From a virus, in IMG/VR virus record IMGVR_UViG_3300031952_000008, positions 1-64,000 of that record: a DNA stretch of 64,000 nucleotides. The stretch is one strand, 5' to 3'. A model generated the notes under the pieces. That model made no database searches. It worked only from the letters and a program-made list of their open reading frames with translations, and was not told the DNA's origin. The position numbers and the translations under genes are program-made. Below, piece after piece: positions 17,736 to 64,000 of this stretch (position 1 is the stretch's first letter; every line of letters starts with the position of its first letter).

Positions 17736-18416
17736 ATGTTGAAAAATAATAATGGTAAAAACAATTCATTTTATGGAAAGCACCATTCCAAAAAAACCAA
17801 AGAATTGCTTAGTAAAATTAATACTATACCAAGAACAAAACCTTTTATTATTTCGGAGACAATGGAATATATAATAAATGGTCTTATGTTGGGTGATGGT
17901 TGTTTGTTTCAAAGTAAAAAAACAACCGCTAGATATTCACATGGATATAAATATAAAGAATATATAGATTTTATTTGTAAAGAATTAGATATAGAATGGG
18001 GTAAATTATACCAAGATAAAAAAACTAATTGTTTTCATATAAAATCTCTTTCATCTCCAACTTGGTTAGAATTAAAACAAAAATGGTATATTGATAACAA
18101 AAAAATAGTTCCAAAAGATATAAAAATAAATGGCAAAACATTATTATTTTGGTTTTTAGGTGATGGATTTATAAATACACCAACGAAATATAGAGATAAA
18201 GATACAAAATATTATGAAATTTTTCTTTGTACAGATGCATTTAATAGGGATGATAATAATTTTTTAATAAATAAATTGAGCGATATAGGTATAGTTTCTA
18301 CATTAACTAGTAGAAATAGATTAAGAATTAGTGCAAAATCAAATAAACGATTTTTCGAATTAGTCGGAGAATGTCCTGTAGAATGTTATAAATATAAATG
18401 GAGGATGAAAAAATGA
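17736..18416 (+). CDS. LAGLIDADG homing endonuclease with NUMOD3
   Basis: FYGKHHSKKTK; GLMLGDG; FWFLGDG; LCTDAF. Confidence 0.88.
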   Translation: MLKNNNGKNNSFYGKHHSKKTKELLSKINTIPRTKPFIISETMEYIINGLMLGDGCLFQSKKTTARYSHGYKYKEYIDFICKELDIEWGKLYQDKKTNCFHIKSLSSPTWLELKQKWYIDNKKIVPKDIKINGKTLLFWFLGDGFINTPTKYRDKDTKYYEIFLCTDAFNRDDNNFLINKLSDIGIVSTLTSRNRLRISAKSNKRFFELVGECPVECYKYKWRMKK

Positions 18417-19426
18417 AGGTGGTTGTGATAAGTGGGGTTTCTGGTCAAGATGGTTCGTATATTGTAGAGAAATATCTTAATATGAAAAACTTTCGGGTAG
18501 TTGGAATAGAACGCTGGAATCCTACTGGCGTATCTAAAAATTTAGATAATGTAATTAACGACCCCAATTTTATCTTAGAGAATGGAGATATTTGCGAACA
18601 TAATTTTATACATAGGATATTTGAAAAGTACAAGCCTGACTACTTTTATAACATGGCCGCTATATCGTTAGTTCCTGAAAGCTTTAAGATACCTGAACAG
18701 TTTTTTGAAATTAATACAATAGCAGTACTTAAGATATTGGAAGAGATTAGAACTTACTCTCCAAAGACAAAATTCTATCAAGCAAGTACTTCCGAACAGA
18801 TTGGAACTAATAGAAGTATGCCACAGAATACGGAGTCTAAAATGTTACCTAATTCTCCTTATGCTATAGCTAAATTGGCTAGTTATCATTTAGTTAGAAG
18901 TTATAGGGAAGCTTATGGTTTATTTTGTGTAAATGGTATGCTTTGGAACCATGAAGGTCCTAGACGTGGTCCAGATTTTGTAACTCGTAAGATAACTATG
19001 GGTATTGCTAAGATTAAAAAAGGAACTTTAGATTTTGTAGAATTAGGAAATCTTAATGCTATTAGAGATTGGGGTAATGCTGAGGATTATGTAGAAGCTA
19101 TGATTATGATGATGCACCACGATAAACCTGATGATTATGGAGTTGCCACTGGAGAATCTCATAGTATTAGGGAGTTTGTTGAAGAAGCATTTAAGCAAAT
19201 AGGAGAAACAATTACTTGGAAGGGTAATGATGCTTTTGAATTGGGAGTTAATCAAGATGGTAAAATTAGGGTTAAAATCAATGAACGATTTTATAGACCT
19301 GTTGAAGTTCCTCAACTTTGTGGAGATGCTTCAAAAATTAAAGGAATACTAGGATGGACACCTAGAGTAACATTTAGGGAATTGGTAAAAAATATGGTAG
19401 ACGCTGATATAAATCTTTTAAAATAA
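18413..19426 (+). CDS. gmd: GDP-mannose 4,6-dehydratase
   Basis: SGVSGQDGSY, YQASTSE, SPYAIAK, NHEGPRRG, FVTRKI, RDWG. Confidence 0.95.
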   Translation: MKVVVISGVSGQDGSYIVEKYLNMKNFRVVGIERWNPTGVSKNLDNVINDPNFILENGDICEHNFIHRIFEKYKPDYFYNMAAISLVPESFKIPEQFFEINTIAVLKILEEIRTYSPKTKFYQASTSEQIGTNRSMPQNTESKMLPNSPYAIAKLASYHLVRSYREAYGLFCVNGMLWNHEGPRRGPDFVTRKITMGIAKIKKGTLDFVELGNLNAIRDWGNAEDYVEAMIMMMHHDKPDDYGVATGESHSIREFVEEAFKQIGETITWKGNDAFELGVNQDGKIRVKINERFYRPVEVPQLCGDASKIKGILGWTPRVTFRELVKNMVDADINLLK

Positions 19427-19437
19427 GTTTAGATAGA

Positions 19438-19455
19438 TTTAAATAGGTGAACATA
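19438..19455 (+). promoter_or_regulatory. TATA promoter of nrdD
   Basis: TTTAAATA-ggt-GAACATA. Confidence 0.65.
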
Positions 19456-61578: not shown

Positions 61579-62363
61579 TGTTTCATAAAAGTGCACAATT
61601 CTATGATGATTTTTATAATGCCAAATATGATGGTAGGTCTGATAAAGAGGTAAAATACTTAGAAAGTATTATAAAAAAATATAAGGCTAAAAAAATACTT
61701 GATTTAGGATGTGGAACAGGAAGACATACACTTGCACTTGCTAAAAAAGGATATGATATTATAGGTGTAGATATTTCGGAAGATATGATTGATATTGCAT
61801 TATTAAAAAAGAATAATGCGGATATAAATACTTGGTTAAATACAACTTTTGTAGTGGGAGATATGAGAAATACCTATTGTGGAAGCAATTTTGACCTAAT
61901 TTATTCAATGTTTCAATCAATGAACTATCTATTGACGGATTCGAATTTAAGAGATACTCTTTATAATGTAAATACTCAATTAAAAAAAGGAGGAATATTC
62001 GTTTTCGACTGCTGGTATGGTCCCTCTATTGAAAAATATGGTTGTCCTAAAAAATCTTTCTCTATCAATAAAGGAGATTATAAGATATTTAGGGATAGTA
62101 TAAGTACAATACATTATGGAACCAGAACTGTAGATGTAGAACAATATTTTACTTTATTAAATACCAAAAGTTTACTACATAGATTGTTTTTAAGTTATCA
62201 TTTTAAAGAAAAACATACTATGCGTTTTCACTACTTGACAGATATAGCACCTTTAATACAGGATGCAGGATTTGAGATAGTAAAGATAGAAGAATGGATA
62301 ACTAAAAAGAAACCTTCTCCAGATACTTGGGCTATTACTTTTATATGTAAAAAGGTGAGATAA
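61575..62363 (+). CDS. class I SAM-dependent methyltransferase (likely sugar methyltransferase)
   Basis: ILDLGCGTGRH, GVDISEDMI, GDMR, LKKGGIFVFD; adjacent to the aminotransferase. Confidence 0.85.
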   Translation: MMFHKSAQFYDDFYNAKYDGRSDKEVKYLESIIKKYKAKKILDLGCGTGRHTLALAKKGYDIIGVDISEDMIDIALLKKNNADINTWLNTTFVVGDMRNTYCGSNFDLIYSMFQSMNYLLTDSNLRDTLYNVNTQLKKGGIFVFDCWYGPSIEKYGCPKKSFSINKGDYKIFRDSISTIHYGTRTVDVEQYFTLLNTKSLLHRLFLSYHFKEKHTMRFHYLTDIAPLIQDAGFEIVKIEEWITKKKPSPDTWAITFICKKVR

Positions 62364-63511
62364 TGAAAACTATTCCAGTTTGTGAGCCTACTCTTATAGG
62401 AAATGAAAAGAAATATGTTAATGAGTGTTTAGATACTAACTGGATTGGTTCTCAAGGTAGATTTATTAAAGAATTCGAAACAAAGTTCGCCGAGTTCTGT
62501 AAAACAAAATATGCTGTTACTTGTTCTAATGGAACAACAGCTTTACACTTGGCTTTACTAGCTTTAGACATTAAAGAAGGAGATGAAGTTATAGTACCAA
62601 CATTTTCTTTTATAGCAAGTTCTAATGCTATAGTTTATGTAGGAGCTAAACCTATATTTATAGACTCCGAACCTATTACTTATAATATGGATATATCTAA
62701 AATAGAGGAAAGAATAACAGAAAAAACCAAGGCTATAATGGTAGTTCATATATTTGGTCAGCCTATGGATATGGATAGGGTTGTTGAAATTGCCAAAAAA
62801 CATAACCTTTATATAATAGAAGATTGTGCCGAAGCACACGGGGCCGATTATAAAGGAGACCCTGTAGGAACTATAGGAGATGTAGGATGTTTCAGTTTTT
62901 ATGGAAATAAAATAATTACCACAGGAGAGGGCGGTATGTGCGTTACTAATAACGAAATTCTTTATAAAAGAATGGATTTCCTTAAAAATCAAGCTTTTGG
63001 CGAAATAAGATTTATACATAACGCAGTAGGTTATAATTATAGAATGACTAACATACAAGCCGCTATTGGTTTAGCTCAATTAGAAAAGGCCGAAATTCTT
63101 ATTAGAGGAAGGATAGAGAACGCTTTATTTTATAATAAAGAACTTAAAGATGTAGAAGGAATAACTACCCCATCAGAATACGAGCATGGTAGACAAGTAT
63201 ATTGGATGTATGGAATTACTATAGATGAAAAAAAGTTTGGGTTGAATAGAAGTATTATTCAAAAAGAACTAGAAAAGTATGGTATAGAAACAAGGTCTTT
63301 CTTCTTTCCATTAAATCTACAACCTGCATATATAAACTATGGAATAGATTATATAAAATGTCCAATAGCAGAAGAACTTTGGAATACAGGATTTTATCTT
63401 CCTTCATCAAGTCAATTAGCAGTTGAAGATATACATTATATATGTAATACTATCAAAAATATTAAAACTAATGCTAAAAAGATTAAAAAGAAGTATGAAG
63501 AACTAGAATGA
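62363..63511 (+). CDS. GDP-perosamine synthase-like DegT aminotransferase
   Basis: NGTTALHLAL, EDCAEAHG, FSFYGNKIITTGEGG, GYNYRMTNIQAAIG. Confidence 0.88.
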   Translation: MKTIPVCEPTLIGNEKKYVNECLDTNWIGSQGRFIKEFETKFAEFCKTKYAVTCSNGTTALHLALLALDIKEGDEVIVPTFSFIASSNAIVYVGAKPIFIDSEPITYNMDISKIEERITEKTKAIMVVHIFGQPMDMDRVVEIAKKHNLYIIEDCAEAHGADYKGDPVGTIGDVGCFSFYGNKIITTGEGGMCVTNNEILYKRMDFLKNQAFGEIRFIHNAVGYNYRMTNIQAAIGLAQLEKAEILIRGRIENALFYNKELKDVEGITTPSEYEHGRQVYWMYGITIDEKKFGLNRSIIQKELEKYGIETRSFFFPLNLQPAYINYGIDYIKCPIAEELWNTGFYLPSSSQLAVEDIHYICNTIKNIKTNAKKIKKKYEELE

Positions 63512-64000
63512 TAACTCCCAAACTATACGGATTAACTGTAGAAGTCACTAATATATGTAATCTACATTGTAGTATATGCTTTAAACGAGGATTAGAAAAG
63601 ATGAAACCTCAACATCTTAAATTAGAAACATTTAAAAAGCTTTTAAATGAAGCAAACCCTACAAATACTATTTGTTTTGTTGGATTGGGAGAACCACTTT
63701 TGAATCCGGATTTTTATAAGATATTAAAAGAATCCGATAATAGGCATTTAGCTATCAATATGGTTACTAATGGTGTTTTGATGGATGAAACTTGGTGTAG
63801 AAAAATAGTAGACCTTAGAGTTAGTAAAATAAGTATCTCCCTTGATGCGGCTACTAAAGAAACATATGATAAGATACGATTAGGCTCGGATTGGGATAAA
63901 GTTATTAAAAATATTAAAACCTTAGTTAAGTTAAGGAATGAATCCGTAACTAAATATCCTCATATTAGAATTGATATGGTTATGACCAAACAAAACGTTC
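63508..64000 (+). CDS. radical SAM protein (3' end outside window; not in ORF track)
   Basis: EVTNICNLHCSIC (CxxxCxxC), GLGEPLL, TNG, ISLD. Confidence 0.9.
   Translation, partial: MITPKLYGLTVEVTNICNLHCSICFKRGLEKMKPQHLKLETFKKLLNEANPTNTICFVGLGEPLLNPDFYKILKESDNRHLAINMVTNGVLMDETWCRKIVDLRVSKISISLDAATKETYDKIRLGSDWDKVIKNIKTLVKLRNESVTKYPHIRIDMVMTKQNV

Follow-up and report, generated by a model that had tools for sequence, protein, structure and literature searches.

A tailed virus with a genome of about 94 kb was found to encode a private nucleotide-sugar pathway with its own glycosyltransferases as well as exported proteins rich in N-glycosylation sequons. We tentatively propose, giving this reading somewhat less than an even chance, that the virus-made glycans may decorate the virus's own exported proteins via the host export machinery. 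The window, i.e., the whole stretch of 64,000 nucleotides that was analysed, represents the structural half of this siphovirus-like genome. The genome revealed archaeal-type replication genes and its host is probably an archaeon, but nothing pointed to the DPANN symbiont assumed in a preliminary description of the window. In a family comparison over seven genomes (the genome under study being G000), identity of the terminase TerL was only 34–38%, while the major capsid proteins were 61–68% identical; G001 displayed terminal repeats and is complete by that sign. Three cell-surface-related modules, namely the sugar operon, the tail-tip proteins, and a protein with a predicted S-layer fold, are typical of the family but separately losable, and they are not proven to form one machine for re-coating the cell.

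Most genes listed in the preliminary description turned out to be real, though several positions, counts, and identities had to be corrected, and a complete tail and head module within its interval (18413–64000) had been omitted. This module, located on the minus strand, comprises genes for the tape measure protein (TMP, 36459–39521; PF10145 E 1.4e-37, phrog_1533 E 2e-45), the tail tube protein (40564–41700; PF18906 E 2.4e-16), an HK97-type major capsid protein (MCP, 47957–48988; phrog_544/267 major head protein, E about 1e-9), and the portal protein (51047–52492; PF06074 E 4e-8). Directly after the tape measure gene, in Dit position, follows p130 (36063–36455, minus strand), a small conserved tail protein with homologues at the same position in 7/7 genomes and no family match found in Pfam or PHROG. 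The Tal-like tail hub protein p500 (24724–26226, minus strand; phrog_1887 tail protein E 6e-8; PF06605 E 5e-6, below cut-off) is conserved in all seven genomes as well and revealed neither a signal peptide nor a sequon excess.

The sugar operon consists of genes for soluble enzymes, which run in the direction of TerL and overlap at their ends, and lies between the portal gene with an adjoining gene for a 188-aa protein and TerL (67773–69428 of the genome, beyond the window, assigned by family match), a position that is syntenic in 7/7 family genomes. Its core comprises two GT-B transferases, Gmd, and a ColD-type dehydratase with a Lys-to-His change. The 188-aa protein at the operon head (53571–54137, plus strand) was detected between portal and sugar genes in all seven genomes; matches in Pfam and PHROG were not found, and solely its position makes it a candidate for the small terminase. 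In G000, the gene for the Gmd-family GDP-mannose 4,6-dehydratase (18398–19426, plus strand; full-length PF16363 match, E 1.5e-112; for TIGR01472, 353 bits fall short of the equivalog cut-off of 415) adjoins homing endonucleases, with a LAGLIDADG gene (17697–18416) directly upstream, while the orthologues of its relatives are located inside the sugar operon. It is 57–62% identical to the operon-internal Gmd of G002 and G003, and Gmd adjoins the His-variant DegT gene in G002, G003, and G004. This variant corresponds to the ColD/E1-type PMP-dependent 3-dehydratase candidate of G000 (57498–58628, plus strand; DegT fold, PF01041 E 5e-71), in which alignment to 7B0D revealed His at the position of the catalytic Lys, the signature of ColD/E1 (PMC8987622). 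All five homologues in the family share this His, while the catalytic Lys is kept in the paralogous GDP-perosamine-synthase-like aminotransferase (62363–63511, plus strand; PF01041 E 5e-123), whose best match was 3BN1, the Caulobacter GDP-perosamine synthase (E 3e-104, residues 4–361). Thus, profile matches and the Lys/His check bear out the Gmd, perosamine-synthase-like, and ColD-like enzymes that had been named before.

The remaining operon genes, all on the plus strand, begin with a Rossmann protein of 245 aa (54484–55221; PF00984 E 4e-5; TIGR03026 E 1e-12; the UDP-glucose dehydrogenase 3PHL, E 3e-3) that is present in six of the seven genomes and resembles NDP-sugar dehydrogenases in their N-terminal and central parts. 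The sugar dehydrogenase of the preliminary description can be traced to this gene, but its product is fragment-like with weak matches, and it is possibly a reductase. Two small ORFs conserved across the family (55206–55457 and 56135–56371) enclose an HNH endonuclease gene (55689–56207; PF13391/PF01844) and are followed by a gene for a soluble GT4 glycosyltransferase (56371–57390; PF00534 E 2e-19; phrog_2170 E 2e-25), which has homologues in 7/7 genomes and whose closest clusters in the Atlas are either viral or assigned to the 'GT4-conflict' family. Downstream of the ColD-type gene, a cupin (58625–58972) and a left-handed beta-helix (LbH) acetyltransferase (58935–59408; NeuD/PglB/VioB-type, E 2e-18), a pair covered by a PF07883/PF05523/PF00132 set, are specific to G000. 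Two paralogous GT-B glycosyltransferases (59369–60517 and 60514–61578; PF00534 E 2e-13 and 4e-6), a SAM-dependent methyltransferase (61575–62363; PF13649 E 3e-19), and, after the perosamine-synthase-like gene, a radical SAM/SPASM enzyme (63508–64569 of the genome, the window ending at 64000; PF04055 E 1e-20, PF13186 E 1e-8) complete this part, so that family matches confirmed the cupin, acetyltransferase, methyltransferase, and radical SAM enzyme noted earlier. Beyond the window, the radical SAM gene is followed by genes for a GT4 transferase (64553–65662 of the genome), a methyltransferase (65659–66357), and a PF13524 glycosyltransferase that is universal in the family (66354–67343), then by a small cupin-like ORF and TerL. 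The four GT-B genes previously counted are therefore three in the window (at 56371, 59369, and 60514) and two just beyond it; the two universal transferases fall in virus-dominated clusters. Altogether, this gene set supports the earlier claim of a virus-encoded private nucleotide-sugar pathway with transferases.

Three minus-strand genes for exported or anchored proteins occupy the tail-tip slot between p130 and the hub p500. Protein p328 (35077–36063) harbors an N-terminal membrane anchor or signal (hydrophobic segment at residues 10–28) and 12 sequons versus 6 expected (z 2.8–3.0). The secreted giant p1905 (29382–35099) with an N-terminal ConA/LamG lectin-like domain (PF13385 E 5e-9) displayed the highest sequon density in the window (100 versus 52 expected, z 8.8; reverse motif 51 versus 51). 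Secreted p1053 (26228–29389; signal peptide recognized by inspection and hydropathy) revealed Gly-rich beta-helix-like repeats and 40 sequons versus 21 expected (z 4.9); it was a near-orphan in a search of 5.8 billion proteins, and its C-terminal c. 290 aa are conserved in the hub-adjoining protein of six genomes. The tail-tip genes are translationally coupled to those of TMP, p130, and p500 by overlapping ends. The three exported glycoprotein-like adhesins of the preliminary description thus keep their N-terminal signal or anchor and their sequon excess, but they are not free-standing and occupy the host-recognition slot of the tail. Based on this location, the coupling, and the conserved hub-adjacent domain, a virion-directed role is more parsimonious than cell re-coating.

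Pooled over seven genomes, 21 signal-bearing proteins contained 801 N-X-S/T motifs versus 401 expected (ratio 2.00), while 333 other proteins contained 931 versus 923 expected (ratio 1.01). The excess (z 3–9 per protein) occurred solely in proteins carrying a hydrophobic signal at the N-terminus, and neither the reverse motif S/T-X-N nor D-X-S/T was enriched in the sequon-rich proteins. Since D/E was not found at position −2, the sequon is not of the bacterial PglB type. Judged from these motif counts, the secreted proteins are under clear selection for N-glycosylation sites. In G001, a soluble GT2-GT4-methyltransferase fusion is located within the structural module and adjoins a sequon-rich exported protein.

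The third module is represented by p580 (22218–23891, alternative start 22149; plus strand), an acidic, exported or anchored protein whose gene is a separate unit oriented convergently to the tail genes. Behind an N-terminal lipobox-type signal (LAGC; LxGC consensus in the family alignment), the anchor is followed by a coiled-coil stalk of c. 90 residues and then by an ectodomain that is acidic and rich in beta structure. The AF2 model of this ectodomain (pLDDT 96.3, pTM 0.90) found its best fold match in 3U2G/3U2H (Foldseek E 1.7e-4, prob 1.0; VIA Z 8.9, rmsd 5.2, 203 aa; the sole match with Z of at least 8). The modelled fold thus resembles the Methanosarcina S-layer DUF1608 domain, which supports the S-layer-like character claimed before as regards fold and export, but a sequence match to PF07752 was not found. 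In metagenomes, the p580 family comprised 970 representative clusters.

Across the family, the operon core was detected in all seven genomes, and exported tail-tip proteins with a sequon excess as well as the S-layer-fold protein were each found in six of them, so that their co-occurrence is recurrent but the modules are separable, which comes close to refuting one obligate system. G003 harbors the operon (GT4, Rossmann protein, Gmd, ColD-like enzyme, GT4, and PF13524 transferase) and the S-layer-fold gene, but its tail-tip proteins are ordinary tail fibres with neither signal peptide nor sequon excess; hence, at least the universal transferases need another acceptor there. G001 carries sequon-rich proteins and a different sugar set lacking Gmd and the ColD-like enzyme, and no S-layer-fold gene was found in it. 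The preliminary description reported no oligosaccharyltransferase or flippase for the window; this holds for the entire 94-kb contig and the relatives searched, where neither AglB (STT3) nor a flippase nor any polytopic membrane protein was detected, so that an exported glycan must use host machinery.

In the reading that we favour, the soluble enzymes would be expressed from a late operon, with Gmd providing GDP-4-keto-6-deoxymannose, from which the ColD-type PMP enzyme would remove the 3-OH to yield a 3,6-dideoxy-4-keto sugar that the conserved Rossmann protein may reduce. In G000, a second branch of perosamine-synthase-like transaminase and LbH acetyltransferase would lead to a sugar of the N-acetyl-perosamine type, and the cupin, two methyltransferases, and the radical SAM enzyme may tailor the sugars before five GT-B transferases assemble an oligosaccharide in the cytoplasm. 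There, on the cytoplasmic membrane face, the viral enzymes would extend or replace the host lipid-linked glycan, and the host flippase and AglB would transfer the virus-specified glycan to the exported viral proteins. The Sec-exported tail-tip proteins would thereby be N-glycoproteins made by the host oligosaccharyltransferase, with a glycan that would act as a shield for the adsorption apparatus and make it more stable; host surface proteins synthesised at a late stage of infection would unavoidably receive it too. Membrane-anchored p580 would display its DUF1608-like domain at about S-layer height. Against this reading, tailed virions assemble in the cytoplasm, which leaves the joining of secreted proteins unexplained, and the gene contents of G003 and G001 described above also speak against it.

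In a somewhat unlikely alternative, the soluble viral transferases would act directly on virion proteins in the cytoplasm, e.g., those of the capsid or tail tube, as happens in chloroviruses and mycobacteriophages, while the exported tail-tip proteins would carry only the ordinary host N-glycan and the modules would be functionally independent. Typically, however, 3,6-dideoxy and 4-amino-6-deoxy sugars occur in lipid-linked surface glycans. Furthermore, no acceptor signature was found: the cytoplasmic structural proteins lack a sequon excess (ratio 1.01, as above), and the S/T-G-S motif described for a different virus family was not enriched. What argues for direct cytoplasmic modification is an operon that is universal even in G003 with its sequon-poor tail tip, located with packaging and head genes, whose enzymes are all soluble and whose universal transferases belong to viral clusters, and there is precedent in mycobacteriophage capsids glycosylated by phage transferases (Freeman et al. 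2023, as cited in PMC11256854).

We consider it improbable that glycans, secreted proteins, and p580 with its S-layer fold provide the infected cell with a new coat, none of them being a virion part, be it for blocking superinfection, for keeping progeny from sticking to debris, or for changing partner recognition. Though secreted proteins would not easily join cytoplasmic virions, the stalked p580 forms a unit of its own convergent with the tail genes, and a changed lipid-linked glycan would alter host surface glycoproteins as well, the genes for the secreted proteins are flanked by conserved tail genes, overlap at their ends, and encode a conserved hub-adjacent domain. Moreover, the operon is located with the late packaging genes and not with early or lysogeny genes, each module can be lost without the others, and a DPANN host lacks support. 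Archaeal N-glycans influence virus-host interactions in archaea (PMC10384203), which favours such remodelling; yet the earlier proposal of one system re-coating cell and/or virion is only partly supported, the modules being separable and a virion-directed role more parsimonious than re-coating of the cell. Glycosylation of viral DNA for restriction evasion is very improbable. Apart from an operon adjoining the terminase and the precedent of T-even phages, whose DNA is glucosylated by GT-B enzymes, it is opposed by sugar types that are those of surface glycans and by a sole DNA methylase of N6/N4 type; five genomes yielded no thymidylate-synthase-like hydroxymethylase, and a TET/JBP match was not found either, though in this latter search the control was silent too.

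Two further genes of the preliminary description lie upstream of its interval of 18413–64000. The product of the first (10845–11462, plus strand), described as a LapG-like protease, is a transglutaminase-core cysteine protease-like protein (PF01841 28 bits, above cut-off) with weak resemblance to LapG (PF06035, Peptidase_C93, 19 bits at a cut-off of 27; PDB LapG structures E 0.02–0.05); a signal peptide was not found and a homologue is absent from most relatives. The deacetylase gene (14663–15271, plus strand), for which no homologues were found in relatives, is specific to G000 and retained its assignment, with a match to the PIG-L de-N-acetylase family (PF02585 E 2e-14).

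The viral contig comprises 94,280 bp (GC content of about 31%) with an estimated completeness of 82% (CheckV), the window being its first 64 kb. Annotation revealed a replication block on the plus strand (6.6–21 kb) with genes for an AAA ATPase, RadA (PF08423, E 1e-76), a family B polymerase, an intein-bearing DNA methylase, NrdD, and several homing endonucleases. On the minus strand, a complete siphovirus-type tail and head module (24.7–52.5 kb) harbors the genes for a Tal-like hub (24724), three large proteins, a small conserved protein, the tape measure protein (TMP, 36459–39521), the tail tube (40564), the capsid protein (47957), and the portal (51047). 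A tightly packed sugar operon on the plus strand (53.2–67.3 kb of the genome) runs into the terminase gene TerL (67773–69428). The preliminary description had assigned the interval 18413–64000 to a single system for re-coating the infected cell and/or the virion; since the tail and head module fills much of it, this interval is for the most part a virion module of the ordinary kind, unusual in two of its contents.

Upstream of that interval, the product of 10845–11462 had been taken for a LapG-like protease. This role was rejected based on a weak match to PF06035 (19.4 bits, cut-off 27), E values of 0.02–0.05 against LapG structures, and the lack of an N-terminal hydrophobic signal for export; the protein matches only the broader transglutaminase core (28 bits, cut-off 23). 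Two short ORFs immediately precede this protease-like gene, one of 62 aa containing three hydrophobic segments and the other of 112 aa with a single such segment at its N-terminus; the layout (10351–11462) resembles a holin-plus-lysin cassette. Lysis genes are not known from archaeal tailed viruses.

Searches with TerL and the capsid protein led to five related IMG/VR genomes (64–111 kb, one with terminal repeats) and two contigs of one MAG, all fetched whole save the 65-kb contig of the MAG (about 21 kb read), which makes seven genomes together with that of the window, most of them incomplete. The genomic context of metagenome homologues comes from IMG/VR and this one MAG only. Across the family, identity amounted to 61–68% for the capsid protein, 44–52% for the portal, and merely 34–38% for TerL, the latter indicating that the family is old. 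The capsid protein (47957–48988) is far better kept than TerL (67773–69428) or the portal, whereas tailed viruses usually show the opposite order. A search against INPHARED resulted in no close deposited phage genome, the sole match being the capsid protein of an Altiarchaeum virus (26%). In a scan of all species, two MAG contigs turned up, one from a bin labelled 'Planctomycetia' and one from 'Methanosarcinales'; the first MAG revealed only the viral RadA and no STT3, and the second contained STT3 and a RadA-like match of only 31%, so that these bins are probably binning artefacts or uninformative on the host. A DPANN host, as suggested beforehand, is not supported.

In all seven genomes, the sugar genes lie between the gene for the portal or a 188-aa protein and TerL. 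Universal members of the operon are a GT4 (start at 56371 here), two small ORFs, and a PF13524 glycosyltransferase (66354), which precedes TerL in each of the six genomes read up to that end; the part of the 65-kb MAG contig that was read does not reach it. A Rossmann protein (54484) is present in six genomes. Both universal glycosyltransferases fall into virus-dominated clusters, and the neighbors of the GT4 are of the 'GT4-conflict' type, some of them from Actinomycetota and viruses. PHROGs gave no match for the small-terminase candidate, the small operon ORFs, or the PF13524 glycosyltransferase. All operon proteins are soluble. In three relatives, Gmd is found inside the operon, adjoining a DegT enzyme with a His variant and a second GT4. 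In the window's genome, it has been relocated and immediately adjoins a LAGLIDADG endonuclease gene in the replication block; homing may have been the cause of its leaving the operon. Specific to this genome are the cupin, the acetyltransferase, two GT1 paralogues, a Per-like enzyme, the radical SAM enzyme, the 61575 methyltransferase, and PIG-L; for a second methyltransferase (65659), the only homologue is that of G004, encoded outside the operon of this relative. G001, the relative with terminal repeats, has a different set of sugar genes, and a divergent SDR occurs in G005 and the MAG. A 117-aa SLOG/DprA-like protein (54134–54487) opens the operon in the window's genome and has homologues sited elsewhere in G002 and G003. 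Apart from that, G001 encodes a soluble 819-aa fusion of GT2, a GT4-like part, and a SAM-methyltransferase amid structural genes (68666–71125, minus strand; L015:8666–11125), and this gene adjoins that of a sequon-rich exported protein.

Family matches confirmed the assignment of Gmd, the cupin, the LbH acetyltransferase, a methyltransferase, and the radical SAM/SPASM enzyme. Gmd matched PF16363 with 377 bits, above the gathering score (residues 11–333 against profile positions 2–332). With TIGR01472 it reached 353 bits, under the equivalog cut-off of 415 and still by far the best model (next 133 bits); because this cut-off was missed, it is filed as a Gmd-family enzyme only, with GDP-mannose as the inferred substrate. 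For two DegT enzymes, the earlier Per-like and ColD-like guesses were borne out by a match to 3BN1 with a retained Lys and by a Lys-to-His change, respectively. The product of 62363–63511 matches Caulobacter GDP-perosamine synthase 3BN1 with E 3e-104 over residues 4–361 and keeps the PLP Lys and the GNK motif, ColD structures reaching only about 1e-36. It is thus classified as GDP-perosamine-synthase-like, with a predicted C-4 amination of GDP-4-keto-6-deoxymannose. In the product of 57498–58628, a His is aligned to the Lys of 7B0D; the same His occurs in all five family homologues, whereas the Per-like paralogue keeps Lys. Lys-to-His is the main difference of ColD/E1 3-dehydratases from aminotransferases (PMC8987622), which makes this protein a candidate ColD/E1-type PMP-dependent nucleotide-sugar 3-dehydratase. 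The ColD subtype is marked by the absence of a [2Fe-2S] four-cysteine motif and by GDP-4-keto-6-deoxymannose as substrate; here, Cys positions vary among the homologues, and Gmd neighbors the homologue in three relatives. Other parts of the gene list needed correction. Against the four GT-B glycosyltransferases claimed, the window encodes three, a further two following shortly after its end. The 'sugar dehydrogenase' is a fragment-like Rossmann protein of 245 aa with weak matches, and the PIG-L deacetylase gene is present upstream of the interval to which it had been assigned.

The virus thus possesses nucleotide-sugar enzymes and glycosyltransferases of its own, the gene content of virus-encoded autonomous glycosylation. 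No STT3/AglB was found in any of the viral genomes searched and no protein with at least four hydrophobic segments in any of the genomes, which together indicates that there is no viral OST, flippase, or initiating transferase. Likewise, the membrane-embedded flippase and transferase components of a GtrABC-type seroconversion cassette were not found, nor was a GT2 in the window's genome.

In the tail module, the order of TMP (identified by PF10145 and PHROGs), the small post-TMP tail protein p130 (36063–36455), a variable segment, and the putative Tal-like hub p500 (24724–26226) is kept with one transcription direction in seven genomes. For p500, PF06605 reached 26.8 bits against a cut-off of 31.3, and phrog_1887, a tail protein, matched with E 6e-8. 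Here, the variable segment between p130 and the hub comprises p328 (35077–36063), p1905 (29382–35099), and p1053 (26228–29389), all on the minus strand and with gene ends that overlap or abut. These three had been described as adhesins; their export signals and sequon excess stand, and their position in the tail-tip slot argues against free-standing adhesins. As judged by hydropathy and inspection and no dedicated predictor, p1053 and p1905 have textbook signal peptides (K-rich n-region, hydrophobic core, A-x-A-like end), and p328 has an N-terminal anchor. Counts of the sequon N-X-S/T were 40, 100, and 12 for p1053, p1905, and p328, compared to 21, 52, and 6 expected from shuffles, with S/T-X-N and D-X-S/T at expectation. 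The proteins in this slot are likewise signal-bearing and sequon-rich in five of six relatives. Pooled over seven genomes, 21 signal-bearing proteins revealed 801 sequons against 401 expected (ratio 2.00), and 333 others 931 against 923 (1.01). Judging from this pattern, the exported proteins are plainly under selection for N-glycosylation and are predicted AglB substrates; the excess of the canonical sequon points to the host OST. D/E at sequon position -2 amounted to 8.1% against a background of 10.3%. A bacterial PglB-type sequon was rejected on this lack of acidic residues, which speaks against a bacterial system of that type and fits an archaeal host.

In the protein adjacent to the hub, the C-terminal 250–300 aa or so are common to six genomes and the remainder is hypervariable, the pattern expected of a putative docking domain. 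Sequence searches of the PDB with p1905 and p1053 gave no match, and p1053 is nearly an orphan (search of 5.8 billion proteins). G003 is the exception among the relatives, since it harbors ordinary tail fibers in the slot, without signal or sequon excess, and has kept the operon. Signal-bearing, sequon-rich proteins form another hot spot between the head-tail joining genes of G001, G002 (33322–39055; L019:13322–19055), G004, G005, and G010, one that the window's genome lacks. The motif S/T-G-S is not enriched in these genomes; in the tail tube of G003 (45188–46279, minus strand; L024:5188–6279), five were counted against 0.7 expected, both being small numbers.

The protein p580 (22218–23891, plus strand) displays a lipobox-type signal, a helix of about 90 residues, and an acidic, beta-rich body. 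Homologues occur in six of the seven genomes (G001 has none), convergent to the end of the tail module (L023:7399–8964, L026:4975–6501, L035:13894–15591, L018:11639–13201, and L048:4903–6564). A profile search with this family retrieved 970 representative clusters of uniform length, unnamed and metagenomic, with the consensus LxGC. A first model, built on an alignment of five sequences (pLDDT 59) with weak fold matches only, was superseded by an ectodomain model from 98 sequences with a pLDDT of 96.3. Its top match in Foldseek was the S-layer DUF1608 domain 3U2G of Methanosarcina acetivorans (E 1.7e-4, probability 1.0, TM 0.27/0.37–0.40), and that in VIA-align was 3U2H (Z 8.9, rmsd 5.2, 203 of 256 residues), the sole match at Z of at least 8. 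Domain I of class II fusion proteins followed among the fold matches, a resemblance also described for DUF1608 (PMC5744192). PF07752 gave no match at E<=1 to the p580 proteins of G000 (the window's genome), G003, G004, and G005, and p580 of the window's genome had no Pfam match either; against the PDB, a sequence search of p580 found nothing and a profile search only coiled coils, and BFVD yielded no convincing viral fold match. Like MA0829 (DUF1608, PF07752; 3U2G/3U2H; PMC5744192), p580 is acidic, beta-rich, and exported and resembles fusion-protein domain I. It differs, however, in sequence (14% identity, no HMM match), in having one domain set where MA0829 has a tandem pair, and in its anchor, which is N-terminal and carries a coiled-coil stalk, that of MA0829 being C-terminal. 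Of the earlier claim of an S-layer-like protein, a fold shared with DUF1608 stands with moderate strength; owing to the missing sequence match and the differing domain arrangement, the model suggests an S-layer-like fold and not family membership. The p580 family is also short of sequons (8 observed, 16.7 expected, six proteins), in contrast to the twofold excess of the other exported proteins and to the N-glycosylated Methanosarcina protein, and may be selected to stay unglycosylated.

As a connection between the operon and the tail tip, we tentatively propose, at somewhat short of an even chance, that the virus would make activated rare sugars and that a glycan would be assembled in the cytoplasm late in infection, alongside packaging. 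Viral enzymes would thereby modify the lipid-linked glycan of the host, and host flippase and AglB would place the virus-specified glycan on the exported tail-tip proteins, the predicted acceptor. Comparison of the seven genomes revealed the operon in every one of them and also modules that are separable, given that G003 is devoid of sequon-rich tail tips and G001 of p580. Direct glycosylation of capsid or tail proteins in the cytoplasm, independent of the exported proteins, better explains G003 with its retained operon; it was ranked nearly as likely, that is, as possible rather than probable. Re-coating of the cell, as proposed in the preliminary description, fits the gene positions less well and appears improbable. 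Glycosylation of DNA is unlikely, since no thymidylate-synthase-like hydroxymethylase was detected in the five genomes searched and TET/JBP gave no match in a search whose control was silent as well.

Glycosylation of the tail tip by the host AglB could be taken further, to an adsorption apparatus finished outside the cytoplasm. Secreted tail-tip proteins, N-glycosylated with the virus-specified glycan, would dock via their C-terminal domain onto the hub of particles built in the cytoplasm, either at the membrane or at lysis, and the widespread S-layer-fold protein would lodge in the S-layer of the host, either opening or patching it, in the service of exit or exclusion. We regard this extension as rather unlikely.

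The closest systems are known from chloroviruses and mimiviruses, with their autonomous glycosylation, and from mycobacteriophages, whose virions are glycosylated in dependence on phage glycosyltransferases. The former machinery of large DNA viruses, with chlorovirus PBCV-1 and the Mimivirus fibril glycans, was reportedly treated by Piacente and colleagues in 2015, as cited in 10.1101/2021.07.29.454249. PBCV-1 uses its own GMD and glycosyltransferases for its capsid protein, in a non-sequon, cytoplasmic glycosylation. Viral nucleotide-sugar enzymes from Gmd on, several soluble transferases, rare 6-deoxy and amino sugars, and the lack of a viral OST are common to these viruses and the one studied here. 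Differences are that ours is a prokaryotic tailed virus, with the operon between terminase genes and a ColD-type 3-dehydratase in the pathway, and that, unlike in PBCV-1, Sec-exported proteins show an excess of canonical N-X-S/T. In mycobacteriophages, virion glycosylation depends on glycosyltransferases that the phage encodes (Freeman et al. 2023, Cell Host Microbe, via PMC11256854). Tailed viruses with their own glycosyltransferases and virion proteins as supposed acceptors are found in both cases, and the GT4 neighbors here are of the 'GT4-conflict' type; those phages rely on sugars of the host and carry no more than glycosyltransferases, encoded near the end of the genome, in contrast to the full sugar synthesis in the packaging module and the exported acceptor candidates of our family. 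With the colitose (Gmd-ColD-ColC) and perosamine (Gmd-Per-PerB) O-antigen pathways of Gram-negative bacteria (PMC8987622), the operon shares Gmd, a DegT enzyme with His for the catalytic Lys, a Per-like transaminase, and an LbH acetyltransferase. Unlike there, a ColC/Fcl-type reductase-epimerase was not recognizable, Wzx/Wzy, an ABC transporter, and an initiating transferase are missing, and the genes belong to a virus of a probable archaeon. Three things differ from the viral systems named: a tailed prokaryotic virus with a full Gmd/ColD-type/Per-type pathway between terminase genes, exported proteins saturated with canonical sequons in the tail-tip slot, and an S-layer-fold protein.

Glycosylation by enzymes of the virus itself has been studied thoroughly in giant viruses and was recently shown in mycobacteriophages (PMC11256854). 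The present family extends this, as a deep lineage of tailed viruses (roughly 60–110 kb) keeps an operon for sugar synthesis and transfer in the packaging module. In the textbook view, tailed virions are assembled wholly in the cytoplasm, with which secreted proteins of about twofold sequon content in the host-recognition slot of most members are hard to square. If the proposed link is true, the family would offer a tractable case in which a virus, via the host export machinery, furnishes its adsorption apparatus with a glycan of its own, an enzyme source for rare 3,6-dideoxy and 4-amino-6-deoxy sugars, and a first candidate function for the S-layer-fold viral protein family of about 1,000 clusters. 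Should it fail, the region would still show cleanly, for a virus family of which little is known, that modules related to the cell surface are separable.

The window's genome is also dense in homing elements. The relocated Gmd is immediately preceded by a LAGLIDADG_2/NUMOD3 gene (17697–18416), and NrdD is followed by a GIY-YIG gene (21620–22015); the head module contains a LAGLIDADG gene (46263–46646) and the sugar operon an HNH gene (55689–56207). The DNA methylase (15271–16965) carries a LAGLIDADG-bearing intein, and inteins were also found in several TerL homologues of the database.
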